From NCBI GenBank assembly GCA_026016205.1, contig CP061209.1:33685-97684 (forward strand): 64,000 nucleotides of DNA, written 5' to 3'. Both the position numbers and the translations under genes were made by a program. Shown one piece after another: positions 10,525 through 62,584 of the stretch. This DNA is from Methanosarcinales archaeon (GTDB lineage: Archaea; Halobacteriota; UBA148; JAUWXC01). The notes below the pieces were generated by a model. That model saw nothing but the letters and a program-made list of their open reading frames with translations. It did not search any database and was not told where the DNA came from. Position 1 is the first letter of the stretch; each line of letters opens with the position of its first letter.

Positions 10525-10591
10525 TGTAACAACTAATGAGGTAGTGAGGATTTATAAATAGTTCTGGAATAATGGACAAGAGGTTAGTCAA

Positions 10592-12792: not shown

Positions 12793-12794
12793 TC

Positions 12795-14024: not shown

Positions 14025-14136
14025 AGGGTAATATGAAGTAATTATAAATGGAGGAAAAGTAGGGTAGTATGGGGAGAAAAAGTTGAGGCCGAAGATAAAT
14101 TTGAGAGAGCGTATAGAGAACTAAAAGGTTTGCAAC

Positions 14137-15722: not shown

Positions 15723-15777
15723 ACATCTGCATGTTTGCAAAGGGCTTGCTGGTGCATATTACTGGTGGAGAAGAAAT

Positions 15778-16146: not shown

Positions 16147-16173
16147 TATTCATAGCTATCCGCCCCCCAGCAA

Positions 16174-19979: not shown

Positions 19980-19980
19980 T

Positions 19981-27889: not shown

Positions 27890-27970
27890 TTTATTATCTC
27901 TCCAAACCACTCTATCGTCTTATTCAAGCCTGCGCCTAAATTAACCTTTGGCTCCCAATTCAAAATCTCT
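27886..27970 (-). pseudogene. 3'-terminal remnant of an SDR (UXS-like) gene
   Basis: The reverse-strand frame reads ...[31 protein letters not shown]. Compare the intact UXS C-terminus [21 protein letters not shown] at 29668. The remnant stop overlaps the ATG of the downstream SDR gene (ATGA). There is no upstream body: an in-frame stop lies about 45 codons up. Confidence 0.7.
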
Positions 27971-28040
27971 CCGTTTTCTCCAGAATTTATTGTTACTTCG
28001 TAGAAAATTTTATAAGCATAATACCTTAATATGGTATAAT

Positions 28041-43301: not shown

Positions 43302-43392
43302 TATCATATCCTTGATTAAATGTGAATCTTTTATACAATAAAACGACAAATCTACATATGTGTTGATACCAACGGTTGAAAGGCGAAGCGTG

Positions 43393-44097
43393 ATGACGAA
43401 ATATGATCTGGGTATACCAGAGCTGGACAAGGCATTGGGAGGGATTCAAAGTGGCACAAACGTGGTGCTTGTAGGTCCTCCGATGTGTGGAAAAGACATA
43501 CTCGTCAAGCAAATTCTCCATGCTGGTTTGAGGGATGGGGACGGAGTTATCCTTGTATCTACTGGGGAGCCCGGCGAAAGCATATTCAAATGGTGCGAAC
43601 AGCACAAATTGGGTATAGAAAACTATAAAAATCGGTTTGGAATTGTGGATTGCGTCTCGAAAACGCTTGGCATGGATGTTTCTGATACGCAAAATATAAA
43701 ACGTGCATCTAGTCCGGTTGACTTGACCGGGATCGGTGTCAAAATAAGCCAGTTTTTTGAGCAGTTCTATGTCAAGGATAAGCTTTCAAAGGCCAGACTG
43801 GCTGTAGACTCCCTATCGACGATGCTGATGTACTCCAATCTGCAGACTGTTTTTAGATTCTTGCATGTTTTCACCGGCAGGATTAAAGCCGCAGATGCCC
43901 TTGGCATCTACGTGCTCGAAGCCGGTATGCATGATGATAAAACCGTTGCAACGCTCAAGAAATTGTTTGACGGTGTGATTGAAATCAAAGAAGAAAATGG
44001 CGAATTCTTCATTAAAACCGCGGGGATGGGTTCAACACCAGGAAAATGGATGAAGTATGAAATTACCGGCCCTAAAATCGTCATAAAAGGTGATTAA
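43393..44097 (+). CDS. KaiC-like ATPase (single domain, Walker A 'GPPMCGKD')
   Basis: 'LGIPELDKALGGIQSGTNVVLVGPPMCGKDILV' is present, with the C-terminal 'GVIEIKEENGEFFIKTAGMG..PGKWMKYEITGPKIV'. This is the first gene of a tightly packed three-gene operon. Confidence 0.75.
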   Translation: MTKYDLGIPELDKALGGIQSGTNVVLVGPPMCGKDILVKQILHAGLRDGDGVILVSTGEPGESIFKWCEQHKLGIENYKNRFGIVDCVSKTLGMDVSDTQNIKRASSPVDLTGIGVKISQFFEQFYVKDKLSKARLAVDSLSTMLMYSNLQTVFRFLHVFTGRIKAADALGIYVLEAGMHDDKTVATLKKLFDGVIEIKEENGEFFIKTAGMGSTPGKWMKYEITGPKIVIKGD

Positions 44098-44100
44098 AAG

Positions 44101-45267
44101 ATGTTTGAGACAGGCATTCCAAAATTGGATGATTATCTGAGTGGCGGCATACCATCTGGTAAATCACTGATATACCATACCCAACCCGGTGTTGAGGGCG
44201 ATATATTTGGTATGCAGACATTGTATTGGAATTTGCACAAAGGGCACAAAGGCGTATACGTAGCCTCGAACTCCGCCCCATATGCCGTAAAGGGGCGGTT
44301 TAAGGAGTTTGGCTGGAATGTCGAGAAATTTGACCAGCTTTCCATCGTTGATTGTTTCTCAGCGCTAATGGGGGCAGATTCTAGCGAGCGCTATGTGGTG
44401 TCCAATCCAGAGGACATCGTGGCGATAGATGATGCCATATCAAAGGCAATGGAAAATGCGGCAGGCGGTGTAATCGTATTTGAATCGCTCTCAACCATCA
44501 TGGACCATTGTGGTGAAAAAGAAACGCTGAAGTATATGGAGAAATGGAAAAAATATAGCACAGCGTACGACAACGTCGTAATTTGCAATTTTACCGCCTG
44601 GCCTTATGCCAAAAGTACGCTGAAACGGATAAAAGAACTATTTGATGCTGTAATAACCATCAGTGGAATCGCAAAGAGGGTTATTTTTGGGCAGTACTAT
44701 GGGGTTTCAAAAGTGAACTGGGTAGCCAAATCACAGAAGCGCTCAATATCCTTCAAGGTGCTCCGTCCTGGTGGCGTAAAGATTTTCATACCAAAGGTCC
44801 TCGTAACAGGACCCTATAATGCTGGCAAATCATCATTCATTCATGCAATATCAAGCAGAGCGATATCCGTAGACCGGTTGGGAACAACCGTTGCGATGGA
44901 CCATGACTTTATAGACCATAAAGGCTTCACGGCTGATATATTTGGGACGCCCGGGCAGGAGAGATTTGATCCCTTGCTCAGGATGCTCAGCGGCGAGGCG
45001 ATGGGGGTATTCTTGTTAATCGATTCAACTAAGCCTAGTACCTTCCCTAGGGCTAAAAAGATGCTGGAGATGACCAGAGCACATGGGCTTCCTTATCTGG
45101 TCGTAGCGAACAAACAAGATTTGCCAGACGCCTTAAGCGTAAATGCAATACGGAAAAAGATGAAGATTCCAGAATCAGTGCCGATTATCTCTGCCAGCGT
45201 AGCCAAGAAGCAGGGCGTGTTCGAGGCGTTCGAGACACTAATCGATATGATAACCAAGGCAATATAG
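44101..45267 (+). CDS. Fusion protein: N-terminal KaiC-like domain with a degenerate P-loop, plus a C-terminal Ras-superfamily small GTPase
   Basis: The N-terminus 'TGIPKLDDYLSGGIPSGKSLIYHTQPGVEGDIFG' has KaiC-like architecture but no GK[ST]. From about aa 231 the GTPase motifs appear in order: G1 'GPYNAGKS', G3 'DIFGTPGQERF', G4 'VVANKQDL' and G5 'ISASVAKK'. Confidence 0.8.
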   Translation: MFETGIPKLDDYLSGGIPSGKSLIYHTQPGVEGDIFGMQTLYWNLHKGHKGVYVASNSAPYAVKGRFKEFGWNVEKFDQLSIVDCFSALMGADSSERYVVSNPEDIVAIDDAISKAMENAAGGVIVFESLSTIMDHCGEKETLKYMEKWKKYSTAYDNVVICNFTAWPYAKSTLKRIKELFDAVITISGIAKRVIFGQYYGVSKVNWVAKSQKRSISFKVLRPGGVKIFIPKVLVTGPYNAGKSSFIHAISSRAISVDRLGTTVAMDHDFIDHKGFTADIFGTPGQERFDPLLRMLSGEAMGVFLLIDSTKPSTFPRAKKMLEMTRAHGLPYLVVANKQDLPDALSVNAIRKKMKIPESVPIISASVAKKQGVFEAFETLIDMITKAI

Positions 45268-45639
45268 ATGGTGAAAGATACGATTGTTGGGATGCTGGAA
45301 AAGGTGCTGACTGACTTGAGGCGCACCGGTGACATAGAAGCCTCCGCCATCGTGTCACGAGATGGGCTTCTGATGGCATCTGATATTGCTGAAGGCATTC
45401 ATGCCGAGACATTTGCCGCGATGTCTGCAACCATGCTGGGCGCTGCAGAGACTGCGATATCAGAATTGAACAAGGGAATTCCAGACAGGGTCATCGTAGA
45501 GTCAAAGAAGGGAAAGGTTATCACCACGGGAGCAGGTCCGAAGGCGTTGCTGGTGGTCATGACACCTCCCGAGGCAGGATTGGGGCTGATTCTCGTCGAA
45601 ATGGAGAAGGCTGCGGATAAGGCAAAGAAACTGTTATGA
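45268..45639 (+). CDS. Roadblock/LC7 (MglB-like) domain protein
   Basis: 'LTDLRRTGDIEASAIVSRDGLLMASDI....AETFAAMSATMLGAAETAISEL' is the typical Roadblock/LC7 pattern. Its ATG follows the GTPase stop by 1 nt. Confidence 0.8.
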   Translation: MVKDTIVGMLEKVLTDLRRTGDIEASAIVSRDGLLMASDIAEGIHAETFAAMSATMLGAAETAISELNKGIPDRVIVESKKGKVITTGAGPKALLVVMTPPEAGLGLILVEMEKAADKAKKLL

Positions 45640-45856: not shown

Positions 45857-45942
45857 GCCGGGGTGGCAGAGTGGACTAACGCGGCAGGCTCGAGACCTGT
45901 TGTTCCTTCGGGAACACTTGGGTTCAAATCCCAACCCCGGCG
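45857..45942 (+). tRNA. tRNA-Ser(CGA), class II with a long variable arm, no intron
   Basis: GCCGGGG-TG-...-GCAGG-CTCGAGA-CCTGT-[TGTTCCTTCGGGAACACT]-TGGG-TTCAAAT-CCCA-A-CCCCGGC-G. The acceptor stem is a perfect 7 bp and the anticodon loop is CU-CGA-GA. Confidence 0.9.
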
Positions 45943-46011
45943 CTCACTTCGTTCGCTTGAAGTTTTGTTATCCCAATAGGTTTTAGTAAACAGGGGAACA
46001 ACTAGAAGAAT

Positions 46012-47202
46012 ATGCCTGAAGTGGGGGTTTACAAGAGAAGAGGGCTGGAGATCTGGCTTGAAGTCGCTGAGGATAACATCGAGCTCAAGTCATCGGGTGC
46101 GCTCTCTAAATTGACTTCTCCTTTGTTGAATAGAGTAAATAAGATGTTGAGGGACGAGAAGCCAATCAAGGCGACAGAGGAAGAAGTGGTTTTAAGCACA
46201 TGGTTTCCTCCGATTCCAAGCGGGCCATTCCAAAGAGCTATAAAAGCTGAGATGGACATCTTGCTGAAGAGAAAATTCACTCCACAGGCTGTTTCAATGA
46301 ATATTTCTGATTGCACACTCAATTGTAGTGAGTGCAACATAGTCGAGCATGAGGGAGAGCTCAAAACGAAAGAGGTGAAGGATTTTATAGTGCAAGTCCA
46401 GGACCTTGGGGCGATTACAATTGGATTTGCGGAAGGAGACCCCCTCTTAAGGGAAGACCTTTCTGAACTTATAGATTGCATAGACAAGAAAAAATCCATT
46501 ACGAGCGTTTTCACGCCTGGCCCCCTATTGACAGATAAGGTTGCTGCGGAATTGAAAGAGCATGGAGTATATGCGGTAATGACAGGGATTAAAAGCTCAA
46601 TCCCGCGGGAGCATGATGCTGCGAGAGGGCTAAAAGGGGCATTTGACAAAGCTGTAACAGGCATGAAAAACGCGGTAGAGAATGGACTCTACGTCTCCAT
46701 GCATACACATGTAGCTCCAAAACTTGTGGAGAGCGGGGAGCTTGCCAAAATCTACAAACTCGCCTCGAAGATTGGAGTTCATGAGTTGACCATCTGGGAA
46801 GCGCATCCAACCTGGAAATATAAAGATAAAAAAGAGTTGATTTTGGATGATGGGCATAGAAAGGAGATTATGGAACTGTACAGGAAAGCAAACACTTCCA
46901 AAGAAGGTCCAAGAATATTCTACAACGCTGTCTTTGAATCTCCAGAGCTCTTTGGCTGTATGGCAGGCAGGAGATGGCTGAACTTGATACACTCGGGTGA
47001 TTTGACTCCTTGTACATACGTCCCAATATCATTTGGAAACATTAGAGAAGAAAGCGTGGAGAAGATCTGGAGAAGGATGTGTAAATTTAATGAATTCAGG
47101 AGGAAGAGATTCTGCGTGATGCTCGATGAGAAATTCAGGTCGAAATATATCGATCCGTTCTCCGTATCTGACCTGCCCATCAGCTACAAGGATGTTGTTT
47201 GA
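46012..47202 (+). CDS. Radical-SAM enzyme with a C-terminal auxiliary-cluster (SPASM/twitch-like) region and a ~100-aa N-terminal extension (paralogue 1)
   Basis: The CX3CX2C motif is 'DCTLNCSECNIV'. The 'GFAEGDPLL' GGE-like motif is present. The C-terminus reads 'GCMAGRRWLNLIHSGDLTPCTYVPISFGNIREESVEKIW'. The N-terminal motif is 'STWFPPIPSGPFQRAIKAEM'. Confidence 0.8.
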   Translation: MPEVGVYKRRGLEIWLEVAEDNIELKSSGALSKLTSPLLNRVNKMLRDEKPIKATEEEVVLSTWFPPIPSGPFQRAIKAEMDILLKRKFTPQAVSMNISDCTLNCSECNIVEHEGELKTKEVKDFIVQVQDLGAITIGFAEGDPLLREDLSELIDCIDKKKSITSVFTPGPLLTDKVAAELKEHGVYAVMTGIKSSIPREHDAARGLKGAFDKAVTGMKNAVENGLYVSMHTHVAPKLVESGELAKIYKLASKIGVHELTIWEAHPTWKYKDKKELILDDGHRKEIMELYRKANTSKEGPRIFYNAVFESPELFGCMAGRRWLNLIHSGDLTPCTYVPISFGNIREESVEKIWRRMCKFNEFRRKRFCVMLDEKFRSKYIDPFSVSDLPISYKDVV

Positions 47203-47218
47203 TTTGAAGGTGTGAACT

Positions 47219-48409
47219 ATGGAATTTGTTGCATATGATTCAATTCTGCTCAAACTCATTTTGGAAGTCATGGACAACAGGACAAGGATGCAGACTAAAG
47301 GCCCTCTCTCCCCCTTCTTAGGAAAAGTGGAGCAGAAGTTTGGTGCATATCTAAAAAATCTACCGACTGAAATCAGAGGGGACACACTCTACCTTTCAAC
47401 CGCCTTTCCGCCCGTTCCAAGCAAGCCTTTTAAACGACTTGTAACCTCTCAGATAAAAAGAGCTCTTGGCTTTCATAATCCTGATAACCTGACAATTATG
47501 GTTACGGAAGACTGCCAGTGTCATTGCGAGCACTGTCTGGCACATAAAATGGGCCAGGGCGAAGAACTCTCCAAGAACGAGATATTCGATGTGATTGACC
47601 AAGCTCTGGAGCTTGGCGTGTCTCAAATCACTTTTGAAGGCGGCGAGCCGACTTTGAGAAAAGACCTCCCTGAACTCATTGAGCACGTTGACAAAAGCAA
47701 GGCCACTACAATGGTCGTGACAAATGGCCAGTATCTAACCAAGGATTACATTCAGACGCTCAAGAAGTCCGGATTGGACTACATAAATGTAAGTATAGAC
47801 AGCCCATGCCCAGAGGAGCATGACACGTTTAGAGGGGTTTCAGGACTTTTCGAGGATGCTACCAAAGGGATAAAAAATTCTGTAGACGCGGGAATTCTAA
47901 CCGGTGTTTTATACATTGCGAGGCCGGGGAATTGTGACAGGAAAACCTTAGAAAAGATGGTAAACTACTGCGAAGAGCTCGGTGTTTTTGAACTTATGAT
48001 CGATAAAATTGTCCCAAGTGGGAGATGGATGGGCAAGGATGTCTTGAGCGAAGAACAGGAGGAAGAGATAATCAGGTTCCAGAAAGAGATAGCCGAGGAG
48101 AAGGGAAAGAACTTGGTCACGAACTTTTTCCAGTTAAGGAGGCCTGATTTTTTTGGATGTTTTGCAGGCAGAATGTGGTGCTATGTTTCTCCTAGTGGAG
48201 AGGTAATGCCGTGCATGCATGTTCCCATCTCCTTTGGAAATGTGCGGAAGGAGAAATTATCAAAGATATGGAAAAAAATAAGAAGGCACCCCCTCTTCAA
48301 CAAAAAACCAGAAACGTGTGTATATGAAGGCCCCCTATATAAGGAAAAATATCTTGGGCACATGCCAGAAGATGCCCCTCTTCCATATCCTATTGAGAAA
48401 CTTGATTGA
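47219..48409 (+). CDS. Radical-SAM enzyme, SPASM/twitch-like, with the N-terminal extension (paralogue 2)
   Basis: The CX3CX2C motif is 'DCQCHCEHCLAH'. 'TFEGGEPTL' and 'GCFAGRMWCYVSPSGEVMPCMHVPISFGNVRKEKLSKIWKKIRRHPLFNKKPETC' are present. The N-terminal motif is 'STAFPPVPSKPFKRLVTSQIKR'. Confidence 0.85.
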   Translation: MEFVAYDSILLKLILEVMDNRTRMQTKGPLSPFLGKVEQKFGAYLKNLPTEIRGDTLYLSTAFPPVPSKPFKRLVTSQIKRALGFHNPDNLTIMVTEDCQCHCEHCLAHKMGQGEELSKNEIFDVIDQALELGVSQITFEGGEPTLRKDLPELIEHVDKSKATTMVVTNGQYLTKDYIQTLKKSGLDYINVSIDSPCPEEHDTFRGVSGLFEDATKGIKNSVDAGILTGVLYIARPGNCDRKTLEKMVNYCEELGVFELMIDKIVPSGRWMGKDVLSEEQEEEIIRFQKEIAEEKGKNLVTNFFQLRRPDFFGCFAGRMWCYVSPSGEVMPCMHVPISFGNVRKEKLSKIWKKIRRHPLFNKKPETCVYEGPLYKEKYLGHMPEDAPLPYPIEKLD

Positions 48410-48410
48410 C

Positions 48411-49394
48411 ATGAAGGCGCTTACTATTCCATTAAAGGCCCTATGGCAGTTGAAGGTAAAAAACAGACCCATTATTCTTTCTCATGGAATTAATTCGAGA
48501 TGCAACCTGCACTGCAAATTTTGCCCATACTGGAAAGAAGACAGGGGCGAGATGAGCAAAGAGGACATATTCAAACTCCTTGAAGAAGCCAGGTCTTTCG
48601 GAATAATGCTTTACAACGCATGGACCACAGAACCCCTCCTGAGGGAGGATCTTCCAGAAATCCTTAGGTATGCTCATCACCTTGGGATGATGACATCTCT
48701 TGTAACCAATGGAGTCCTGCTGAAGAAGAGAGCCAGAGAACTCTCAGACCTTGATTATCTCTCGATTTCTGTAGACGGTATTAAGTCCTATGAGGCGATG
48801 AGAGGTGTCAAGCTGGATAAGGTGCTGGATGGAATCAGGGAGGCAAGGGACAGGGGAATCACCACCTTAATCAACTGCGTCATCAGCGGAAAAAATCTGG
48901 ACGAGATCGAGGAGCTAATACATCTAGCCCAAGAGTTGGGGGCGTGGATTTCATTTGAGCCCCTCTATGAATACGAAGACATCCCACAAGAGGTGTGGGA
49001 AGATATAGGGATAAGGGATATGGGAAGGTACGAGAAGACCATTGACAGGATAATTGAATTAAAAGAAGAAAGCTATCCTATTATCAACTCCAAAACTTAT
49101 CTCAGAATGATAAAGAATCTGCGCCCAGATTTCAGATGTCATGCCAGTGACATTGTGCTCGATGTTACATCGGACGGTAGGATAGAAAACTGCAGAGTTC
49201 ACAGAGAAAGCATGGGCGATATCAAGGATGGACTGGATAATGCCTGGAGTGCTTCAAAAGCGAGGAGGAAAAAAATACCGATGGGATGTAAAGGGTGTCT
49301 GTTTTTTGGATATGCTGAATTAAGTCTCCTCTATTCTTTTAAACCTGAAGTAATACTAAATGGTATCAGGATACTAAATGGCATTAGGCCCTAA
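48411..49394 (+). CDS. Radical-SAM enzyme (distinct, shorter type with no N-terminal extension)
   Basis: Start taken at MKALTIPL, 1 nt after the upstream stop. The CX3CX2C motif is 'SRCNLHCKFCPYW' at about aa 30. The C-terminal Cys residues are in 'RCHASDIVLDVTSDGRIENCRVH' and 'MGCKGCLFFGY'. Confidence 0.8.
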   Translation: MKALTIPLKALWQLKVKNRPIILSHGINSRCNLHCKFCPYWKEDRGEMSKEDIFKLLEEARSFGIMLYNAWTTEPLLREDLPEILRYAHHLGMMTSLVTNGVLLKKRARELSDLDYLSISVDGIKSYEAMRGVKLDKVLDGIREARDRGITTLINCVISGKNLDEIEELIHLAQELGAWISFEPLYEYEDIPQEVWEDIGIRDMGRYEKTIDRIIELKEESYPIINSKTYLRMIKNLRPDFRCHASDIVLDVTSDGRIENCRVHRESMGDIKDGLDNAWSASKARRKKIPMGCKGCLFFGYAELSLLYSFKPEVILNGIRILNGIRP

Positions 49395-50530
49395 AGGATA
49401 TATTTTGCAAATCTTATCAACTTTGGATTCTTCCACAGAAGAAGGAGCCCCGTGCTCAGGGAGTTCAGAATAACATTATCATGCTTTGAGAGCTGTTTGG
49501 ATATGTCCACGCCCTCTAAAGCCCTCATTGCTTCATCAAGCTCTGCATCCGACATCTTTTCTATGGTCTTTAATCCAAAACGCCCCGTCCTGTACTGATT
49601 TAAAAATCTCTTCTTCCACTGCTTCTCGTACTTAGAAAGGAATCTTTTAGAGCCATCCTTCTCCTTCACCGCTTCCGCAGCAACCTCTCCACAAAGCATG
49701 CCAGCAGCCATTCCATAGGCAATACCTGCCTGCCCAGCAGCTCCACCTACAACCATCAGCCTATCGCTTACTAACTCGTTAGGCATTGTGATTATTTGGT
49801 CTGCCCCCTCTGATATGCTAAGAATTTTGGCTTTGCTGAACATATCTCGCTGCAGAAATCTATCAAAATACTCCTTTGGGCTTTTCCCTCTAACAAACGC
49901 TCCCACGCTTGTCTTGCCATCTCCTTTTGGGGAAATTGTGGTCTTCCAGCCTGGTGCAACTTCTTTGCCTAGGAAATAATGGAAATAATTTTCGTTCACC
50001 TCTACGCCCTCCATCTCGGCCTGGATTGCGTATGCAAGGTCTTCCGGGTACTTCATCGTTTTCAATCCTGTTTCCTTAACGATTTCAGAGTTTACTCCCG
50101 GGGCGAGTACAAAAACCTCTCCATTGTACATCTTCTTGTTTTCCCCCTCTTTTACAACAACCTCTCCCTCATTGAGAGCTATGGCATCGAAGCTCATTTT
50201 GATCTCTGCGCCAGCATCTCTTGCCATCTCAGCATAATACGCATCAAACTTCTTCCTATCAATCGAGAATCCTGGTGCATCTATTGTTATGGTCGTTCCG
50301 AGCGGAGAGATTATATTCATCCCTTTGACCTTGTGAATGATGTATTTCTCTTCAGGCTCAAGTCCAATCATCTTAAAAAAACCATCAAAAGAAGTATCTG
50401 CAGGGCTTGGAGCAGAATCAAAACTCTCTCTTTTCTCCAAGAGTAAAACATTAGCTCCTCCTTCTGCTGCCTTCCATGCTGCCATTAAACCAGCAGGACT
50501 TGCACCTATCACTATTACATCGTATTTCAT
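49391..50530 (-). CDS. FAD-dependent geranylgeranyl reductase-family oxidoreductase
   Basis: 'MKYDVIVIGASPAGLMAAWKAAEGGANVLLLEK' is the dinucleotide-binding GxGxxG motif. 'RLMVVGGAAGQAGIAYG' is the second FAD motif position. The length and layout match archaeal GGR/ChlP-type enzymes. Confidence 0.75.
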   Translation of the reverse strand: MKYDVIVIGASPAGLMAAWKAAEGGANVLLLEKRESFDSAPSPADTSFDGFFKMIGLEPEEKYIIHKVKGMNIISPLGTTITIDAPGFSIDRKKFDAYYAEMARDAGAEIKMSFDAIALNEGEVVVKEGENKKMYNGEVFVLAPGVNSEIVKETGLKTMKYPEDLAYAIQAEMEGVEVNENYFHYFLGKEVAPGWKTTISPKGDGKTSVGAFVRGKSPKEYFDRFLQRDMFSKAKILSISEGADQIITMPNELVSDRLMVVGGAAGQAGIAYGMAAGMLCGEVAAEAVKEKDGSKRFLSKYEKQWKKRFLNQYRTGRFGLKTIEKMSDAELDEAMRALEGVDISKQLSKHDNVILNSLSTGLLLLWKNPKLIRFAKYIL

Positions 50531-51732
50531 TCTTCTACCCGGTATGGCAATCTTTCCTCTTCAATTGCATTTCTAATACAGCCGAAATAATTATCCCTGT
50601 ATTGAGGATCTCTCCATGCGCATGTTTCTGGTTTTTTCTTAAACAAAGGATGCCTTCTTATTTTTTTCCAGGCACTCTCTAAGCTTATATCGCGCACATT
50701 GCCAAAGGAGAGCGGAATGTGCAGACAGGGCATGATCTCACCAGTCGGCGATATCCATACCCATCTTCTTCCTGCAAAGCATCCCATGATATTGGGATCT
50801 CTGTAGGAGTAAGAAGAAGATACCCTGGGGCCGTCTCTCCTCTTATTTGCCTCATTTTGAAACGCAGCTAACCTCTCATAATCTTCCTTCGTTAAGAGGT
50901 TGTCATCATGATATTCCCATCTCCCTCCGGGAACCACCTCATCAATCAAAATCTCATGTACACCAAGAGAACTGCAATGTTTGTATAAATCCTCTAATCT
51001 TTTCAAATCAGAGTTATAGGGAGTAGCCGTGTATTCGACTATTCCTATCAACCCTTCTTCAACACCATACTTAACGCCTGCAGAGGCTTTTTCAAAAACC
51101 CCTTCAACCCCCCTGAACATATCGTGTTCCTTCGGGTATGGGCTATCGAGGCTGACATGTAGATATACAAGTCCTGCATTCTTCAGCCTCTGTACATAGT
51201 CTCTTGTCAGGCGGAGCCCGTTTGTTATCAGATGCGTAGAAGCTTTGCTCTTATCAACATGCTTAATCAAATCGAATATATCATCCCTGAGCGTTGGCTC
51301 CCCCCCTTCAAAGCTTACATGGTAAGCTCCAAGTTCAAGGGCCTGGTCTATCACATGGTAAAGCTCCTTAGTGGGGATGTGTGGCTCCTTTTTCATTCCA
51401 TGTACTATACAGTGCTTGCATTTACATTGGCATCTGCCCGTGGTTAACAACATCAGGCTCTCAGGCATGGATTTACGCAAAAGGAGGCGTTTTATCTGGT
51501 TTTCTACGAGCCTGTTAAAAGGTCCACTGGGGGCGGGCGGCATAAAATTGGATATTATGACCTGCCCTTCTCGGACTGCCGCTACCTTTTCCAGTGCAGC
51601 ATGCGCATTAAACCCCTCTGCGATGTGCATTACAAATCTCGAGAGTGGACCTTTCACCACCATCTGTGCGCTTCTGCCGTTCACATCAAATAGAATCTCA
51701 AAGCCTAGGCCCTTGTAAATCGATAGTTCCAA
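50527..51732 (-). CDS. Radical-SAM enzyme, SPASM/twitch-like, with the N-terminal extension (paralogue 3, closest to paralogue 2)
   Basis: The CX3CX2C motif is 'GRCQCKCKHCIVH'. 'SFEGGEPTL' and 'GCFAGRRWVWISPTGEIMPCLHIPLSFGNVRDISLESAWKKIRRHPLFKKKPETC' are present. The N-terminal motif is 'SNFMPPAPSGPFNRLVENQIKR'. Confidence 0.85.
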   Translation of the reverse strand: MELSIYKGLGFEILFDVNGRSAQMVVKGPLSRFVMHIAEGFNAHAALEKVAAVREGQVIISNFMPPAPSGPFNRLVENQIKRLLLRKSMPESLMLLTTGRCQCKCKHCIVHGMKKEPHIPTKELYHVIDQALELGAYHVSFEGGEPTLRDDIFDLIKHVDKSKASTHLITNGLRLTRDYVQRLKNAGLVYLHVSLDSPYPKEHDMFRGVEGVFEKASAGVKYGVEEGLIGIVEYTATPYNSDLKRLEDLYKHCSSLGVHEILIDEVVPGGRWEYHDDNLLTKEDYERLAAFQNEANKRRDGPRVSSSYSYRDPNIMGCFAGRRWVWISPTGEIMPCLHIPLSFGNVRDISLESAWKKIRRHPLFKKKPETCAWRDPQYRDNYFGCIRNAIEEERLPYRVEE

Positions 51733-51754
51733 ACTACTCCCTCCTCTAATTCTG

Positions 51755-52681
51755 TTATATATGGTTAAGAATATTATACGCTGCAGCCATGCTGATTATG
51801 CCAAGCATTATAGTATAGTTTATGACGCCAACATGTGTAAGCTTTATGTGGGCTTTGTGCTCATCTGAATGGGCATAGGCATGGAAAAGTGCCCTGATTT
51901 TGAAGATAGCTAATCCAAAGTAGAGTGTTAAAAATATCCAGTTCAGGGCAAAAGTCTGCCAGAGCACTATAAGCCATAGGTATTCCAATATACTCATCAC
52001 AACCGTGAATGATATCGTTCCCCTTGATGTTAGCGGTGTAAAGCGCATCGAATCTTTATCATGGTAGGCCAGACAGCCTACTATAACTGCCAGAGACGCT
52101 ACAACAGACTCCCACGAGAGTATTTTTTCAGGAGCAACCATGGCGATGCCACCCAGGACTATGAGCCCACTCAGGGAGCGGTAAATGCGCCTTTGGAGCT
52201 CTGTCAGTTTTTTCAATGGCGGGCTTGCGGAATACGTCACTCCCCATATAAGCATGAGAAACCCCATCAAAAAGCACGTTGGATTGAATATAAAGTAGGC
52301 AACCCACAGGCAGAATATCGTCTCAACTACCATGAAGAAGATCACGGTTTTGGGTGAGAGAAGCCCGGTTACAAGGGGGAGGGTTGAATTCGGCGGGCCA
52401 AGACCCTCGTCCTCTCCAGTCCACCAGTCATATAACATATCTGCTTGAGAGATAACTCTTGTGAGCAGCCCTGCTGCGAAGAGACCTAAAATAAGCTTCC
52501 ATAACGGAAGAACTGGGGCACCAAGCGCCATAAATAAAAGTGCTCCGGTGCCAGCGCACAAAGCGCCCCAGGGAAGCCACAGCACACGATGAACGCAAAG
52601 GATTGCGAGAATCTTGGCCTTTAATCCTTTACCTCTCGGTCCTGCTACGCCAAACCCTATATCTATAAGAGAAGGCTTCAT
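51755..52681 (-). CDS. Polytopic membrane protein, divergent UbiA-prenyltransferase-like
   Basis: About 8-9 hydrophobic helices in 308 aa. An Asp-rich loop 'SQADMLYDWWTGEDEG' (DxxxD) follows helix 2. A second acidic loop is 'AYHDKDSMRF'. The 'YSASPPLKKL' loop resembles the UbiA 'Y..PP.R.K' segment. The assignment is from pattern only. Confidence 0.5.
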   Translation of the reverse strand: MKPSLIDIGFGVAGPRGKGLKAKILAILCVHRVLWLPWGALCAGTGALLFMALGAPVLPLWKLILGLFAAGLLTRVISQADMLYDWWTGEDEGLGPPNSTLPLVTGLLSPKTVIFFMVVETIFCLWVAYFIFNPTCFLMGFLMLIWGVTYSASPPLKKLTELQRRIYRSLSGLIVLGGIAMVAPEKILSWESVVASLAVIVGCLAYHDKDSMRFTPLTSRGTISFTVVMSILEYLWLIVLWQTFALNWIFLTLYFGLAIFKIRALFHAYAHSDEHKAHIKLTHVGVINYTIMLGIISMAAAYNILNHI

Positions 52682-52687
52682 AACAAC

Positions 52688-53569
52688 TTATCCCGATTTA
52701 GCCATTGCCTTTTCAAGTAGTTCAAAATTGCAAAAGTCCTGGGGCATCGTTTTAATATAATCCAGCTCTTTCATCAGTCTTACAATTCGCATCATCGCAT
52801 CCATGCTGCCGGTTATGTCAACATGTGGTTGGTTATATCTTAGGGCTTCTCTTATAATCATGGCAGGGATTCCGATGTATTTGGAACTGATTTTTGCGGC
52901 ATCATCCGGCTCTCTATTGCAAAATGCCTCTGCTTTTAGAATTGCATTTAAAAAATTTAACGCTACATCGGAATGATTTTGAAGAAACTCATCAGTGGTA
53001 GTAATGCTGCAACCTGGTGTTTTTGGAACCACATCTTTGCCTCTGGCAATTATTTTTCCTATCCCCACCTCAACTGCCATTGTGGCATAGGGCTCTACAT
53101 TGGTTGTGGCATCTACCCTGCCACTTAGCAGGGCAAGCATGGCCGCATCCCCGCTCGGAAGCCGTATAATCTCTGTGTTTTCCGGAGTTATATCATATTT
53201 TTTGAACAGGACTTGAGATGTCAGGTCTTTCATACCACCTGCAACTGGAAGTGAAATTCTTTTTCCCTTTAATTCGGAAAGGTCGTTTATCCCTGAGTCT
53301 TTTCGAACCACTGTAGCCGGCTCTTCATAACCGGAGCCAGCGATTACGACCATGTTGTTTCCATTATCTCTCGCACTCACCGTCCGCGTCCAAGGTAGTA
53401 TGCCAAAGGAAATTTTGCCAGAAATAAGTTTATTGGGCAACAGCCAAGCTGTTGGATCAATAGAATATGATATCTCTAATCCCTGCTCTTTGAAAAATCC
53501 CTTCTCATACGCTATGTATGCAGGCATCTGGCATATGCCCCTGATAAGTCCAATATTAATTTTTAACAA
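52688..53569 (-). CDS. NMT1/SsuA-like periplasmic-binding-protein-fold protein lacking a signal peptide
   Basis: 'INIGLIRGICQMPAYIAYEKGFFKEQGLEI', 'LISGKISFGILPW' and 'LKGKRISLPVAGGMKD' fit the NitT/TauT/NMT1 type-2 PBP pattern. There is no N-terminal hydrophobic leader and no lipobox. No ABC permease or ATPase lies nearby. Confidence 0.6.
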   Translation of the reverse strand: MLKINIGLIRGICQMPAYIAYEKGFFKEQGLEISYSIDPTAWLLPNKLISGKISFGILPWTRTVSARDNGNNMVVIAGSGYEEPATVVRKDSGINDLSELKGKRISLPVAGGMKDLTSQVLFKKYDITPENTEIIRLPSGDAAMLALLSGRVDATTNVEPYATMAVEVGIGKIIARGKDVVPKTPGCSITTTDEFLQNHSDVALNFLNAILKAEAFCNREPDDAAKISSKYIGIPAMIIREALRYNQPHVDITGSMDAMMRIVRLMKELDYIKTMPQDFCNFELLEKAMAKSG

Positions 53570-53683: not shown

Positions 53684-53801
53684 GGCCGGGGTGGGGTAAC
53701 GGCTATCCTTTGGGACTGTGGCACAAACTTTTTAATAAAAAGTTTGACCAAAAAGGTTGTGCAGAGATCCCATGACCCGGGTTCGACTCCCGGTCCCGGC
53801 C
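53684..53801 (+). tRNA. tRNA-His(GUG) with an encoded G-1 and a 45-nt intron at the canonical 37/38 position (53722-53766)
   Basis: G(-1)-GCCGGGG-TG-GGGT-AACGGCTA-TCCT-T-TGGGA-CTGTGG[intron]A-TCCCA-TGAC-CCGGG-TTCGACT-CCCGG-TCCCGGC-C. G-1 opposite C73 is the tRNA-His identity feature. Confidence 0.85.
53724..53756 (+). repeat. Palindromic A/T hairpin motif (copy 1, inside the tRNA-His intron)
   Basis: CAAACTTTTTAATAAAAAGTTTGACCAAAAAGG. The arms CAAACTTTTT/AAAAAGTTTG are self-complementary. It is near-identical to 55741-55772. Confidence 0.9.
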
Positions 53802-53981
53802 CTTATCTCTACCACAAGCATTAAATATAGATTAGGCTATAAGAAAGGAGGCGCCAAAGGCAAATAGCATTTATGCTATCCGAATTTAGAGAGCAACATA
53901 ATTAAATAGTGATAATTGCATATAATATTAGTTTGATTAGATTATAGATGGAGACGTGAGAACTTTCACGTCTGACGTTCG

Positions 53982-54043: not shown

Positions 54044-55516
<1,473 letters not shown>

Positions 55517-55607: not shown

Positions 55608-55739
55608 GGGCTCGTAGCTCAGTTGGAAGAGCGTCGCCTTTGCGATGCATGCGGTTCGAAGAAGCGCCGTGCATTAGAAAACCAGCAGGTTTTCGCACAA
55701 AATAGGCGAAGGCCCTGGGTTCAACTCCCAGCGAGTCCA
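55608..55739 (+). tRNA. tRNA-Ala(UGC) in the 16S-23S spacer, with a 59-nt intron at 37/38 (55645-55703)
   Basis: GGGCTCG-TA-GCTC-AGTTGGAAGA-GAGC-G-TCGCC-TTTGCG[intron]A-GGCGA-AGGCC-CTGGG-TTCAACT-CCCAG-CGAGTCC-A. The G3:U70 Ala identity pair is present. The intron contains the hairpins ATGCA..TGCAT and GAAAACC-AGCA-GGTTTTC. Confidence 0.85.
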
Positions 55740-55930: not shown

Positions 55931-55961
55931 GTGATCCGGACGCTCACTGAGTTTAGTAAAA

Positions 55962-58892
<2,931 letters not shown>

Positions 58893-58970
58893 AATCTGAG
58901 CTCAGGCGATATTTGGGTCGCATGTATTCTCTAGAATTTGCCATCTATATGGTTTAAATGCCGTCTTCGC

Positions 58971-59057
58971 GCCAAGGTGGCGGAATGGCTAACGCAGCCG
59001 CCTGCAGACGAATAGGAAGAGAGCGGCTTTTTGCCGGTTCAATTCCGGTCCTTGGCT
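58971..59057 (+). tRNA. tRNA-Cys(GCA) between 23S and 5S, with a ~14-nt intron (59008-59021)
   Basis: GCCAAGG-TG-GCGG-AATGGCTA-ACGC-A-GCCGC-CTGCAG[ACGAATAGGAAGAG]A-GCGGC-TTTTT-GCCGG-TTCAATT-CCGGT-CCTTGGC-T. The discriminator is U73, as expected for Cys. Confidence 0.8.
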
Positions 59058-59154: not shown

Positions 59155-59281
59155 GGTCATGACGGCCATAGCTGCGGGGAAACTCCTGGTCTCATCCCGA
59201 ACCCAGAAGATAAGCCCGCACACGTTCCATGTGGTACTAAAGTGCGCGAGCCTTTGGGAAGCACGGATCGCTGTCATGACC
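59155..59281 (+). rRNA. 5S rRNA
   Basis: GGTCATGACGGCCATAGC...CCTGGTCTCATCCCGAACCCAGAAGATAAGCCC...GTACTAAAGTGCGCGAGCCTTTGGGAAGC...GCTGTCATGACC. The terminal helix is complementary and the archaeal loop motifs are conserved. Confidence 0.9.
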
Positions 59282-59342: not shown

Positions 59343-60521
59343 TTGAAGGCATGCATTATGTGTGGCGGGGTTGGCACCAGGCTGCGCCCACTCACATTTG
59401 AGAGGCCCAAGCCCAATATTCCTCTTTTGAACAAACCATCGATAGGGCATTTAGTCGAGCAGTTATCTGCCAAGGGATTTGATGACATAGTGATAACCTT
59501 GGGCTATCTTGGGGAAAAAATTGAAGAATATCTTGGAGATGGTTCGATTTTTGGCGTGTCAATCAAGTACGTATACGAGAAAGAAAGACTTGGTACTGCT
59601 GGCAGCGTTAGGAACGCGAAGAAGCATTTAGAGGATGCACCTTTTTTAATCGTTGGAGGAGATCACGTACTCGACTTGAATCTGCGAGAATTCTATCATT
59701 TTCACAAGCAGCATGGCGGTGTCATCACGATAGGCCTTCTTCCCATCGACGATCCCAAGGAATACGGCATTGCAAGCATAGATGTGGGCAACAGGGTCAC
59801 AAGATTCAGGGAGAAACCACCTTCAGGGCAAATCTTCAGCAATTTAGCGAGTACGGGAATCTATGTATGTGATTCAGAGGTATTTGACTGGATACCGGCA
59901 GTGGGACGATACGATTTTGCCAAAGACCTGTTTCCAGCTTTGTTGCAAGCCAACGAACCCGTCTATGGGTGGCTGGCAAGGGGGCCCTGGACGGATCTTG
60001 GAAATCCAAGGGATTATAGAGCAGCATCTAAATGGATGCTCGAAAATCTGCAGGGTACCGAGATAGCAGGGGATTTGCATCTTGAGAAGGCGAGGCTGAT
60101 GGGGCCAATGGTGCTAAAGCATAACGTCTCGCTTGGGCAAAATTCTGCCATTATCGGACCGGTAGTGATTGGCGAGAATACGAAGATTGGGGCCAACGTT
60201 TTAATTGGACCCTATACCACGATTGGAGATAATTGTGAGATTCAGGATAACTCCCAGGTTTTATCGTCGTACATCTATAATGATGTTAAGGTCGGGAGCA
60301 GCACGTCTGTATGTGGCGCGATAATTGATAATGACACTGTCATAGGAAACAAGTGTACGCTTGAAAATGGAACTGTTATCGGCCCCAGGGCTAAGGTTCA
60401 GGATAAAGTGACCATTCATTCAGATGTCCTACTCTGGCCCGAAGTCGTCATAGAATCCGGAGCAGAGATCCTAAAAGATGTATTGAACAAGGCATTCGAA
60501 ACTTCTACGACCGGGTCATAG
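59343..60521 (+). CDS. Sugar-1-phosphate nucleotidyltransferase with a left-handed beta-helix C-terminus (GlmU / NDP-sugar pyrophosphorylase-like)
   Basis: 'MKACIMCGGVGTRLRPLTFERPKPNIPLLNKP' is present. The C-terminal hexapeptide repeats read 'IGPVVIGENTKIGANVLIGPYTTIGDNCEIQDNSQV'. The start codon is TTG, as in the track. Confidence 0.8.
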   Translation: MKACIMCGGVGTRLRPLTFERPKPNIPLLNKPSIGHLVEQLSAKGFDDIVITLGYLGEKIEEYLGDGSIFGVSIKYVYEKERLGTAGSVRNAKKHLEDAPFLIVGGDHVLDLNLREFYHFHKQHGGVITIGLLPIDDPKEYGIASIDVGNRVTRFREKPPSGQIFSNLASTGIYVCDSEVFDWIPAVGRYDFAKDLFPALLQANEPVYGWLARGPWTDLGNPRDYRAASKWMLENLQGTEIAGDLHLEKARLMGPMVLKHNVSLGQNSAIIGPVVIGENTKIGANVLIGPYTTIGDNCEIQDNSQVLSSYIYNDVKVGSSTSVCGAIIDNDTVIGNKCTLENGTVIGPRAKVQDKVTIHSDVLLWPEVVIESGAEILKDVLNKAFETSTTGS

Positions 60522-60956
60522 GTCTACAATAGAGTGTTTTATTTCGTCTTTGTTCACTGCAGCTGCGTCGATCACGCTCTTTTTCACCCTTATTTTCGCA
60601 TCCGCCCGGAGCGCTAATGCGATACAATCGCTTGGTCTTGCATCCAATTCTTTCTTATTTCCATCCACTTGGACGATTAAACGTGCATAATAAATTCCAT
60701 CCTCTAGGTCATCAATTACAACGCCGTCAATCTTGGCATTCAGCTTTTTCAACAGCGAAATCACGAGGTCATGGGTCATCGGTCTTGGTGTGGTTTCATT
60801 GTGCAGTGCACCACCGATTGCGATAGCCTCACCAATTCCGACATAAATGGGCAGCATTTTATTCTCATATCCAAGCATAACTACAGGTGCAGCTCCGGGG
60901 GGAGAGGGCACCATATACACACCTTCAACAGTGACTGGAACCGTGTCGCTCATCAC
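60516..60956 (-). CDS. Bifunctional nuclease family protein (DUF151 / BFN)
   Basis: 'VVMLGYENKMLPIYVGIGEAIAIGGAL....PRPMTHDLVISLL' and 'IYYARLIV......ELDARPSDCIALALRADAKI' fit the BFN pattern. Confidence 0.75.
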   Translation of the reverse strand: MMSDTVPVTVEGVYMVPSPPGAAPVVMLGYENKMLPIYVGIGEAIAIGGALHNETTPRPMTHDLVISLLKKLNAKIDGVVIDDLEDGIYYARLIVQVDGNKKELDARPSDCIALALRADAKIRVKKSVIDAAAVNKDEIKHSIVDL

Positions 60957-61043
60957 TTGTTTATGGTGTTATCTGGGTATATTAATCTGTTCCACATCTG
61001 AAAATTTTAAGCCATCCTGAATCGTTGTGATATTGGTGATAAA

Positions 61044-61559
61044 ATGTCCAAAGTGCTCATACTCATAGCCCCCAAGGATTTCAGGGATGAAGAGTTTCAG
61101 GAGTCATTTGATGCGTGCAAAAATGCAGGATTTGATGTGACGGTTGCGAGCCTGACAACTGATGTATGCGTTGGCATGTTTGGAGTCAGAGTCACACCCG
61201 ATTGCGGCATAGACGAGGTAGATGCAAGCCAATTTGATGCAATTATTGTCGTCGGTGGTTCTGGCACTCCTGTTCTGAAGCAGTATCCTAAGGTGCTACA
61301 AATTATCCAAAATGCGGCAGCGCAAAACAAGATTCTGGCAGCAATCTGTCTTGGGCCGATTGTATTTGCCAAGGCAGGCGTGCTAAGAGGGAAGAGGGCA
61401 ACGGTATTTTCGTCTGGTGTTTCTGAGATTAAAAGTGGCGGAGCAGAATATGTGCCGGAACCCGTTGTCATCGATGGAAATCTGATAACTGCCGACGGCC
61501 CAGATGCGGCTGCCAGGTTCGGAGAAACAGTCGTTAAAGCGCTTACAAACAAGTCATGA
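61044..61559 (+). CDS. DJ-1/PfpI-family protein
   Basis: 'DAIIVVGGSG' and 'ILAAICLGPIVFAKAGVLRGKRAT' (nucleophile-elbow Cys) are present, followed by 'VIDGNLITADGPDAA'. Confidence 0.8.
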   Translation: MSKVLILIAPKDFRDEEFQESFDACKNAGFDVTVASLTTDVCVGMFGVRVTPDCGIDEVDASQFDAIIVVGGSGTPVLKQYPKVLQIIQNAAAQNKILAAICLGPIVFAKAGVLRGKRATVFSSGVSEIKSGGAEYVPEPVVIDGNLITADGPDAAARFGETVVKALTNKS

Positions 61560-62579
61560 TTCCAGTGAACTCTCTATCAATCTCGTATCCCTGAGTATCT
61601 TCAGGCTGATGATGCCACCTACTACTATGTTCAAATAATATGTCATGGCCCTCCAGGCAATCACGAATATGCCAAGGATGGATAATTTGACAAACATCGT
61701 GTATAGTGAGACTATGCCCAGCTCTACGAGGCCACTGCTTCCTGGGGTGAGCGGGAGCATTATGATTATCATCAGGACAAACTGCGCCATGATGGAAAAC
61801 ATCCATATTGGATTTGCGCCCAGTCCCAGAAGGATGAGGGACGGAATCATAAACTCCAAAAGCCAGAAGGCAACGGTGCATACCATGGCAAGAGAAAGTG
61901 CAACTCTTCCTTCTTGGATAAACGTCCATAGGCTGTCGTGAAAGTGGTCAATTTCATCGTAGATTCTTTCTATGATATGGTCGACTGACTTGCTGGTGAA
62001 TTTGGGTATGATGGCTTTGATACGGGAGGCCCAGCTCTTGACATTATCAGGACAATACATGGCATAGGCTGTAAAGCCAAATACAGCACAGAACAACACT
62101 CCTGCGAGTGCAAAGGTTATGCTCAATGGCAGATTGTGCCTCATCACATCTTTGAACATGAACAGGGCAATTGGTGCAGCCAATCCCAAAAGCAGTGCAT
62201 CTAATAGTCGCTCCCCAAAAACAACTGCGGTAGCATCTCCAATCGTTATGCCGTTCCTGCTCAACAAATGTATTCTGACCGGCTCGCCTCCTGCATGGGA
62301 AGGGGTCACGGCAGCAGCAAGTAGGTTGGAAATGACAATCTCAGTGGACCTCCACAGGCTGATTTTACCGCCCAGCGATTCTGTTAGCAGTTTCATGCGC
62401 AAACCCCAAACAAACCACGAGAGAACATGGACGCCAATCGCGATGAAAAGGTAGATGGGCTGGATTTGTCTCAAACTATTGGCCGTTTCACTGTCTACGG
62501 TGAAAATTAAAATTAATAAGGCCGAGATAATACTGATTGCAAGCCCTATCGTCAACCATCTTCTTAGTCTTTCCATCAC
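61554..62579 (-). CDS. Flippase-like membrane protein (lysyl-PG synthase TM-region / UPF0104 family)
   Basis: 341 aa with about 8 TM helices. 'VISNLLAAAVTPSHAGGEPVRIHLL' and 'LPLTPGSSGLVELG' are characteristic of the family. It is adjacent to a GT2 gene, as is usual. Confidence 0.65.
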   Translation of the reverse strand: MMERLRRWLTIGLAISIISALLILIFTVDSETANSLRQIQPIYLFIAIGVHVLSWFVWGLRMKLLTESLGGKISLWRSTEIVISNLLAAAVTPSHAGGEPVRIHLLSRNGITIGDATAVVFGERLLDALLLGLAAPIALFMFKDVMRHNLPLSITFALAGVLFCAVFGFTAYAMYCPDNVKSWASRIKAIIPKFTSKSVDHIIERIYDEIDHFHDSLWTFIQEGRVALSLAMVCTVAFWLLEFMIPSLILLGLGANPIWMFSIMAQFVLMIIIMLPLTPGSSGLVELGIVSLYTMFVKLSILGIFVIAWRAMTYYLNIVVGGIISLKILRDTRLIESSLES

Positions 62580-62584
62580 GACAC

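Follow-up and report, generated by a model that had tools for sequence, protein, structure and literature searches.

A conserved seven-gene archaeal cluster of radical-SAM, UbiA-fold and GGR-family proteins is a candidate pathway for a prenylated, possibly methanophenazine-type, compound

A 64,000-nucleotide stretch of an archaeal genome (Methanosarcinales archaeon, contig CP061209.1; hereafter the window) contains a compact cluster of seven genes, which encode four radical S-adenosylmethionine (SAM) proteins (rSAM_A to rSAM_D), an atypical GGR-family flavoprotein, a UbiA-fold membrane protein and a cytoplasmic protein of the NMT1/THI5/SsuA fold. The seven genes probably constitute a pathway dedicated to making a prenylated, lipid-soluble compound. 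We tentatively propose that they form one conserved unit making a methanophenazine-type (non-quinone) lipid-soluble electron carrier. That this set and the Methanosarcinales counterpart jointly make up the biosynthetic pathway of methanophenazine itself is a more doubtful extension of this proposal. The components come from known superfamilies, and their combination and pathway are uncharacterised; also uncharacterised are the orphan branch of UbiA, the GGR clade whose catalytic motifs are replaced, and the radical-SAM subfamily with its N-terminal domain. A preliminary description of this DNA had proposed an isoprenoid or prenylated-cofactor pathway, and this proposal is supported: profile searches placed no protein in a characterised equivalog family, and the genes co-occur in related and distant genomes.

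The closest genome locus, from 'Methanocellales archaeon CSMAG_2511', encodes seven proteins 94-98% identical to those of the window, and in Met12 ('Ca. Serpentinarchaeum') the UbiA-like and NMT1-like proteins are 82-85% identical. The seven-gene order is the same in four loci (L002, L005, L008 and L012) and rearranged in L004 (UBA148) and L009. The trio NMT1-UbiA-rSAM_D was present in 13 of the 13 genome loci retrieved with a UbiA-like profile, including those of Ca. Methanohalarchaeum, archaeon SCG-AAA382B04 and a Methanonatronarchaeia-like metagenome-assembled genome, and the UbiA-fold gene was always flanked by the rSAM_D and NMT1-like genes. Ca. Methanohalarchaeum carries all seven orthologues at two loci ~75 kb apart on the same contig, one with NMT1-UbiA-rSAM_D and the other with A-B-C convergent with the GGR-like gene, in the internal order of the window (identities of 57% for rSAM_A, 48% for rSAM_B, 47% for rSAM_C from residue 39, and 44% for the GGR-like protein). 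No additional gene was conserved beside the seven-gene set in the neighbourhoods of the recovered loci. Because the same genes and order recur at loci with 66-97% protein identity, and the set in a different class, the arrangement lies far beyond chance. Lone homologues, for example in anaerobic methanotrophic archaea (ANME; L017) and Methanotrichaceae (L019), would fit an incidental adjacency of unrelated genes. This explanation is highly improbable given the order kept across that range of identities, the retention of all seven genes in a second class, three families with identical presence patterns, and a set that is both retained and expressed in a 1.07-Mb genome.

This small genome is that of Met12, a non-methanogenic member of the Methanocellales without Mcr, Hdr and Fpo, in which Rnf is present and a multihaem cytochrome is highly expressed (PMC11176372). 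Met12 genes 747-753 are the same seven genes, with in situ mRNA/DNA ratios of 0.6-1.3 against a genome median of 0.94 (supplement of PMC11176372). The 21-genome orthologue table of the same supplement was used for phylogenetic profiling. Three orthologue clusters, those for rSAM_A, rSAM_D and the GGR-like protein, showed an identical presence pattern: they were found in Met12, Methermicoccus, two Methanosarcina, Methanohalobium, Methanosalsum, Methanococcoides, Methanohalophilus, Methanomethylovorans, two Methanolobus and three Methanothrix/Methanosaeta genomes, and were absent from Methanoflorens, three Methanocella, two Syntrophoarchaeum and Methanoperedens genomes. The UbiA-like gene is a singleton in this table, and the 'core' status of the NMT1-like gene appears to come from its lumping with true SsuA-type proteins; the homologue search returned no close Methanosarcinales relative of the NMT1-like protein. 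A conserved hypothetical protein, cluster1083 (arCOG04388), agrees exactly with these three clusters in its 21-genome pattern, and may belong to the same pathway.

Homologues of rSAM_D with 33-37% identity were found in Methanococcoides, Methanothrix, Methanotrichaceae and ANME. That of Methanococcoides orientis is encoded by the last gene of a three-gene operon, after a canonical UbiA gene and a GGR-like gene whose product is 40% identical to that of the window and has the same atypical motifs. A metagenome scan with a GGR-like profile gave 11 loci, six of which carry the UbiA/GGR-like/rSAM operon and a seventh the UbiA and GGR-like pair. This Methanosarcinaceae operon resembles the window in its adjacent genes and in the similarity of the radical-SAM protein, which extends over the full length including the N-terminal domain. 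It differs in its canonical UbiA (NDxxDxxxD, with a Pfam match), in having no NMT1-like gene, and in having one radical-SAM gene where the window has four, rSAM_D and the A-B-C block. The NMT1-like protein and the divergent UbiA are a lineage-specific pair, and Methanosarcinales also have the radical-SAM and GGR-like genes.

The combination of a UbiA-fold enzyme with a GGR-family reductase points to a partly or fully saturated, prenylated product. In methanophenazine, the membrane electron carrier of cytochrome-containing methanogens and marine methane-oxidising archaea, just one isoprene unit is saturated, and a reductase whose active-site motifs are altered would fit this. The distribution of the set matches the lineages taken to use methanophenazine, as opposed to quinone users or carrier-less lineages: Methanoperedens uses a quinone (menaquinone), and Methanocella is carrier-less. 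For Methanonatronarchaeia, methanophenazine-like carriers have been described together with HdrDE and cytochrome b (PMC9796771). The 21-genome pattern and the presence of the set in Methanonatronarchaeia together point to a methanophenazine-type prenylated redox carrier, and the distribution favours a carrier among the three products considered in the preliminary description (a quinone-like carrier, a tetrapyrrole or a lipid). A carrier is also supported by the L009 variant of the cluster, which adjoins a membrane [NiFe] hydrogenase. Our literature searches returned no paper that assigns head-group or prenylation genes of methanophenazine, or any biosynthetic gene beyond the side-chain synthase; the publications found call the pathway unidentified or give geranylfarnesyl diphosphate synthase as its sole marker, and none names the genes described here.

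In the proposed scheme, rSAM_A, rSAM_B and rSAM_D, together with the MoaA-like rSAM_C, would build or tailor a redox-active head group by radical C-C/C-N chemistry, a role put forward because of the analogy with MqnC/MqnE (menaquinone) and CofG/CofH (F420). The NMT1-fold protein would bind or present a polar (hetero)aromatic precursor, the UbiA-fold enzyme would couple this precursor to a polyprenyl diphosphate, and the atypical GGR-family flavoprotein would saturate one particular side-chain double bond; we infer the substrate, product and order of these steps. If the set and its Methanosarcinales counterpart are the whole methanophenazine pathway, the head group may arise by a radical-SAM route to a phenazine-type structure unrelated to the bacterial Phz enzymes, and the Serpentinarchaeum-like lineage and Methanonatronarchaeia may make a variant carrier via their private UbiA/NMT1-fold pair. 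No Phz family (PhzA/B, D, E, F or G) was among the best 25 Pfam/NCBIfam matches of each protein.

Several observations weigh against a methanophenazine-type product. Met12 is reported to be without HdrDE, Fpo and a VhtC-type cytochrome b (PMC11176372), so a methanophenazine pool would lack an obvious partner except Rnf with the multihaem cytochrome. The homologue searches gave no Methanosarcinales orthologue of the UbiA-fold or NMT1-fold protein, and the UbiA-like gene is a singleton in the 21-genome table; a different head group or acceptor is therefore conceivable. In the same table, the rSAM_B orthologue also occurs in Methanocella and the rSAM_C orthologue also in Methanoflorens, the patterns being otherwise the same, and the profile, which covers only 21 genomes, could reflect vertical descent plus one transfer. 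The direct rSAM_D homologue search, which returned Methanococcoides, Methanothrix and ANME, gave no named Methanosarcina protein. Further points on this side, taken up below, are the peptide maturases that are the best fold matches of rSAM_D, the rSAM_D homologue in a Nitrospinae lipid A operon, the glycosylation island in the neighbourhood of the cluster, and the bacterial NMT1-like relatives found with a CapK-like ligase in glycan clusters.

Since the candidate set has orthologues in the genetically tractable Methanosarcina acetivorans, the methanophenazine question is directly testable. If a methanophenazine-type product is confirmed, the gene set would be a genomic marker predicting carrier-dependent electron transport in uncultured archaea, and the fact that a non-methanogenic 'Methanocellales' archaeon with a tiny genome has and expresses it would revise the published electron-uptake model of that organism. 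If the product is instead a lipid or a tetrapyrrole, the cluster would still define uncharacterised UbiA-fold, GGR and radical-SAM/twitch families.

Pfam scanning of the membrane protein gave no UbiA (PF01040) match, and NCBIfam models reached only 16 bits; some of its orthologues carry a precomputed PF01040 match. The protein is a near-orphan, with 24 relatives in a word-indexed search of 5.8 billion proteins and just four matches among 1.84 billion representatives scanned with a full HMMER profile. Its AlphaFold model (mean predicted local distance difference test score, pLDDT, 88.5) is a nine-helix bundle, and the best 15 PDB fold matches are all members of the UbiA superfamily, with query-normalised TM-scores of 0.46-0.65. 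UbiA enzymes bind Mg-diphosphate at the ends of transmembrane helices TM2 and TM6. The invariant motifs D81xxxD85 with E90-D91, and H207-D208-K-D210, are located at the ends of these two helices and are degenerate relative to NDxxDxxxD and DxxxD. The preliminary description had called this a UbiA-like protein with Asp-rich loops; the fold and the motif positions bear this out, and the assignment rests on fold rather than on sequence similarity.

The flavoprotein has an FAD-binding fold and passes the Pfam GGR_cat threshold (34.4 versus 27), and the GGR-type motif described earlier, YDVIVIGASPAGL, was found in it. The cut-off of the GGR subfamily model TIGR02032 was not reached (123.1 versus 158.8 bits). 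Its best solved relative is the Thermoplasma GGR 3OZ2 (108 bits over residues 3-335), and it shares the FAD-binding fold and the GGR catalytic-domain Pfam match with archaeal GGRs (3OZ2 and the Sulfolobus enzyme 3ATQ) and with MenJ/ChlP. In the alignment, the catalytic Cys of canonical GGRs (RCGEG) is absent and corresponds to a Pro, and the YxWxFP cavity motif is likewise absent, YIWVFP aligning to KTTISP. Clade-wide, these are replaced by the motifs PSPADTSF and PGWKxTxSP, while a canonical GGR paralogue in locus L009 retains both classical features. The GGR-family call of the preliminary description therefore stands by fold and sequence, with the canonical catalytic Cys and YxWxFP motif missing.

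All four radical-SAM proteins pass the gathering score of Pfam Radical_SAM (PF04055; 47-84 bits versus 29.5), and the CX3CX2C motifs, described earlier as intact, were seen in each; rSAM_A, rSAM_B and rSAM_D also pass that of Pfam SPASM (31-39 bits versus 21.5). In a family alignment of 34 homologues, the cluster cysteines C101, C105 and C108 and the C-terminal cysteines C318, C336 and C371 are invariant. The seven-Cys SPASM signature CX9-15GX4C...CX2CX5CX3C...C is incomplete in this alignment, with CX13GX4C and one later Cys kept and CX2CX5CX3C absent. Because this half of the signature is missing, the auxiliary domain is twitch-like; the C-terminal auxiliary-cluster region previously described in three of the four proteins is present, and what had been termed SPASM is a truncated domain. 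The N-terminal domain is strongly conserved across the alignment, closes with a PPxPSxPF motif and is beta-rich in rSAM_A. rSAM_B and rSAM_D are 46% identical, and rSAM_A is 32-33% identical to each. In a neighbour-joining tree, rSAM_B and rSAM_D form sister clades limited to the lineage of the window and Methanonatronarchaeia, rSAM_A groups with Methanotrichaceae proteins, and the Methanosarcinales operon gene falls in a separate sister clade.

None of the seven proteins reached a curated NCBIfam equivalog cut-off, the best scores being 120-140 bits against cut-offs of 306-500, and the scores for AhbC/AhbD, NirJ, MoaA, PqqE, HpnH and Tes are all far under the curated values. For rSAM_A, rSAM_B and rSAM_D, the top NCBIfam matches are AhbD (TIGR04545) and NirJ2, which scored 115-136 bits where the cut-off is 500. 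Assignment of these three proteins to AhbC, AhbD or NirJ was rejected on this basis (AhbD 120-136 versus 500, AhbC 61-104 versus 650); they resemble these families in that a Cys-rich auxiliary domain comes after the radical-SAM core, and differ from them in the truncation of that domain, the extra N-terminal domain and overall scores of 61-136 bits against 500-650.

These matches bear on the possibility of a prenylated tetrapyrrole, in which AhbD/NirJ-like radical-SAM enzymes would alter the side chains of a macrocycle derived from haem or sirohaem, which would then be prenylated by a UbiA resembling haem O synthase and have its tail saturated by a ChlP-like reductase (cf. ChlG/ChlP and CtaB). 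KEGG labels the Met12 UbiA-like protein ATZ61240 as COX10, haem O synthase is one of the best-scoring families for the closest UbiA relatives that could be detected (P0145 and L009:7225-8142), and the carrier lineages all have cytochromes. Such a product nevertheless appears improbable: AhbD scores remain far from the cut-off, the auxiliary domain is short of a full SPASM, Met12 encodes a separate canonical ahbD with ahbAB, and the cytochrome-rich Methanoperedens and Syntrophoarchaeum are without the set. In addition, haem A/O-type cofactors serve oxidases, and the strict anaerobes of these lineages are not known to require them.

The best NCBIfam match of rSAM_C is the uncharacterised PTO1314 family (TIGR03961; 140 bits versus a cut-off of 306), and MoaA also matches. 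Tes, HpnH and archaeal MoaA were each rejected as its identity (45 versus 450, 59 versus 225 and 103 versus 325 bits). The weak HpnH/DUF3463 similarity of rSAM_C, together with the relatedness of Tes (GDGT-MAS) to the radical-SAM proteins in sequence and fold searches, can be taken to favour membrane-lipid tailoring, in which these enzymes would act on archaeol or tetraether isoprenoid chains (cross-linking, cyclisation or hydroxylation-type chemistry), the UbiA-fold protein would be a paralogue resembling digeranylgeranylglyceryl phosphate (DGGGP) synthase, and the GGR-like enzyme would tune chain saturation. DGGGP synthases (6m31 and 7bpu) are indeed among the best fold matches of the UbiA-like model, and the Nitrospinae rSAM_D homologue, directly after lpxL-fabZ-lpxA, suggests a lipid substrate for that branch. 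We consider lipid tailoring unlikely, as Tes (45 versus 450) and HpnH (53-59 versus 225) score far under their cut-offs, the soluble small-molecule-binding-fold protein would have no obvious role, a separate canonical GGR exists (cluster570), and Methanocella and Methanoperedens, whose lipids are ordinary archaeal ones, do not have the set.

The AlphaFold model of rSAM_D (pLDDT 91.7) was searched for fold relatives. The peptide maturases SkfB, SuiB and CteB rank first, aligned over ~400 columns including the N-terminal domain with root-mean-square deviations of 9-14 Å, followed by BlsE, PqqE and MoaA; SkfB and PqqE are also on top in a profile search. The three-part architecture is shared with these maturases of ribosomally synthesised and post-translationally modified peptides (RiPPs), at 16-19% identity. 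It is conceivable that rSAM_A, rSAM_B and rSAM_D cross-link a ribosomal peptide (cf. pyrroloquinoline quinone and mycofactocin) to a product that is then prenylated and membrane-anchored, and the isoprenylcysteine-methyltransferase-like gene of the L009 variant would fit such a product. The large deviations of the fold matches are unfavourable, however, and the N-terminal domain is predicted to be beta3-alpha-beta2, unlike the three-helix winged-helix RiPP recognition element. No conserved small open reading frame was found in or beside the cluster, the candidates being mutually unrelated; the cluster has no peptidase or exporter, and the radical-SAM proteins have prenyl-handling partners. A peptide-derived product is accordingly quite improbable.

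Relatives of the A/B/D family also occur in other contexts. In a Nitrospinae bacterium (L025-L027, 5687-9188), a 36%-identical rSAM_D homologue lies directly 3' of lpxL-like, fabZ-like and lpxA genes, which suggests a lipid A-associated radical-SAM enzyme. An archaeal-type contig (L028, 5192-9239) carries three radical-SAM genes in a row, for a BchE/HpnJ-like B12-binding enzyme, a 476-residue AhbD/TIGR04053-like SPASM protein and a member of the A/B/D family; the neighbour is AhbD-like rather than Tes, and the context is ambiguous. These three genes form a further radical-SAM cluster of uncharacterised type.

The binding-fold protein matches the Pfam NMT1 domain with 96 bits, and THI5 is its best solved relative; it shares both fold and domain with THI5/NMT1 and SsuA-type proteins. 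A function as THI5 hydroxymethylpyrimidine phosphate synthase was rejected, the pyridoxal phosphate-binding Lys62 being replaced by Leu and the substrate His66 by Arg. A function as an SsuA/TauA-type transport solute-binding protein was likewise rejected (TIGR01728, 111 bits versus a cut-off of 163.5; no signal peptide). The orthologues have 279-301 residues against 319-361 in true solute-binding proteins, being 30-60 residues shorter with no N-terminal extension, and no ABC transporter gene was found beside the NMT1-like gene at any locus examined.

Bacterial relatives of this protein (37-48% identical) sit in glycosyltransferase clusters near a CapK/PaaK-like ligase. In three of these loci (L021, 10001-12461; L023, 2830-5287; L024, 10001-13284; 42-44% identical), the gene is followed by one for a soluble protein of ~500 residues, directly in L021 and L023 and past two short open reading frames in L024; this partner carries a CapK/PaaK-like adenylation-type motif, TSG(S/T)R, and gave no Pfam match. 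The bacterial context does not explain the archaeal trio, because it contains no UbiA or radical-SAM gene. It is one of the observations that would fit a role in modifying a polyprenyl-phosphate (dolichol-like) glycan carrier, or in adding a small molecule to a lipid-linked glycan. An N-glycosylation island also lies at 5-35 kb of the window, and the UbiA superfamily includes polyprenyl-phosphate phosphoribosyltransferases, with 8j8j among the fold matches. Such a cell-surface role is nevertheless very improbable: all dolichol-making archaea should need it, yet the set is narrowly distributed; tRNA and RNase P genes and a KaiC-GTPase-Roadblock trio stand between island and cluster; and the glycosylation context is not conserved, the cluster being adjoined in Methanonatronarchaeia by thermosome, TiaS and other genes.

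Returning to the proposed methanophenazine-type carrier, one of the closest known systems is the futalosine (Mqn) pathway, which likewise combines binding-protein-fold (MqnA/MqnD), radical-SAM (MqnC/MqnE) and UbiA-family (MqnP) enzymes and yields a membrane redox carrier. The individual proteins differ. In the Pfam scan, the NMT1-like protein has no match to VitK2_biosynth, the MqnA/D family. The radical-SAM proteins are of the twitch type and have an N-terminal domain, in contrast to MqnC/MqnE, and the Pfam scan gave no match to the CofH/MqnC C-terminal domain (PF19288) in rSAM_A to rSAM_D; a CofH/MqnC-type protein proper was detected, by contrast, in locus L004. For MqnP, the best scores of related UbiA proteins are far under the cut-off. 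Menaquinone-using lineages are without the gene set in the 21-genome table.

The layout of the cluster is given in Table 1. As first described, the seven open reading frames form two convergent, tightly packed operons with 1-22-nucleotide spacing and a 4-nucleotide overlap at the junction, and open reading frame calls confirmed these coordinates. The longest rSAM_C reading frame opens at 48318; its start is likely nucleotide 48411 (M32), because the orthologues begin there. With this start, the intergenic gaps are 16, 1, 22 and 6 nucleotides, the 1-nucleotide gap presuming it, and 4-nucleotide overlaps occur between the GGR-like and rSAM_D genes and at the convergent junction (49391-49394).

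Table 1 Coordinates of the cluster genes and of two genes of the glycosylation island in the window
Feature	Position	Strand	Remarks
rSAM_A	46012-47202	+	Radical-SAM, CTLNCSEC; arCOG00943; Met12 ATZ61235
rSAM_B	47219-48409	+	Radical-SAM, CQCHCEHC; arCOG00941; Met12 ATZ61236
rSAM_C	48411-49394	+	MoaA/PTO1314/HpnH-like radical-SAM, CNLHCKFC; arCOG00938; Met12 ATZ61237
Atypical GGR-family FAD flavoprotein	49391-50530	-	arCOG00570; Met12 ATZ61238
rSAM_D	50527-51732	-	Radical-SAM/twitch, CQCKCKHC; arCOG00942; Met12 ATZ61239
UbiA-fold membrane protein (highly divergent, nine-helix)	51755-52681	-	Met12 ATZ61240
NMT1/THI5/SsuA-fold cytoplasmic protein	52688-53569	-	
AglB/STT3 oligosaccharyltransferase	6903-9302		Within glycosylation island
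Flippase	25311-26747		Within glycosylation island

The G+C content of the cluster (44-46%) lies inside the range of the protein-coding flanks (44-50%), and there is therefore no sign of recent transfer. The L009 variant (5902-20423) has additional genes between the NMT1-like and UbiA-like genes, which encode a canonical GGR, another UbiA of more canonical type and a membrane protein resembling isoprenylcysteine methyltransferase; the variant is followed by HypD and the membrane [NiFe] hydrogenase, which carries a twin-arginine (TAT) signal; no cytochrome b gene was found within the 500 nucleotides examined after the hydrogenase.

The setting of the cluster between tRNA-Ser and a tRNA-His/rRNA operon, as given in the preliminary description, was verified. 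The tRNA-Ser gene is at 45857-45943, and the tRNA gene at 53685-53802 (+) is real and holds a 45-nucleotide intron. It was missed by default ARAGORN and by Rfam scans at the gathering threshold, and is found in the ARAGORN intron mode, which labels it Tyr(GTA). It is identified as tRNA-His because splicing at the canonical position 37/38 gives the anticodon GTG, and the G-1/C73 pair fits His. The window is archaeal and contains a complete rRNA operon (16S 54044-55516, 23S 55957-58895, 5S 59158-59279), RNase P RNA and tRNAs. A 132-nucleotide tRNA in the 16S-23S spacer (55608-55739, +), presumably intron-containing, was detected only by Rfam; for a tRNA between 23S and 5S (58971-59057, +), ARAGORN gives a four-base 'tgca' anticodon and no amino acid; and an additional 105-nucleotide tRNA match is located at 1222-1326 (-).

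The large N-glycosylation/surface-polysaccharide island extends over ~5175-35882. Besides the two genes in Table 1, it encodes ~10 glycosyltransferases of families GT1, GT2 and GT4, dTDP-rhamnose-type functions, a sugar C-methyltransferase and a UDP-glucose dehydrogenase, and further sugar genes lie past the rRNA operon (59343-63556). An AbiEii-type nucleotidyltransferase toxin gene (28792-29613, +) inside the island adjoins an unannotated open reading frame of 294 residues (27948-28832). Just 5' of tRNA-Ser (43360-45639, +) are genes for a KaiC-like/DUF7504 ATPase, a fusion of a KaiC-like domain with a small Ras/Arf-type GTPase, and a Roadblock/LC7 protein, and more KaiC-family genes are located at 1480-2262 and 4402-5172.

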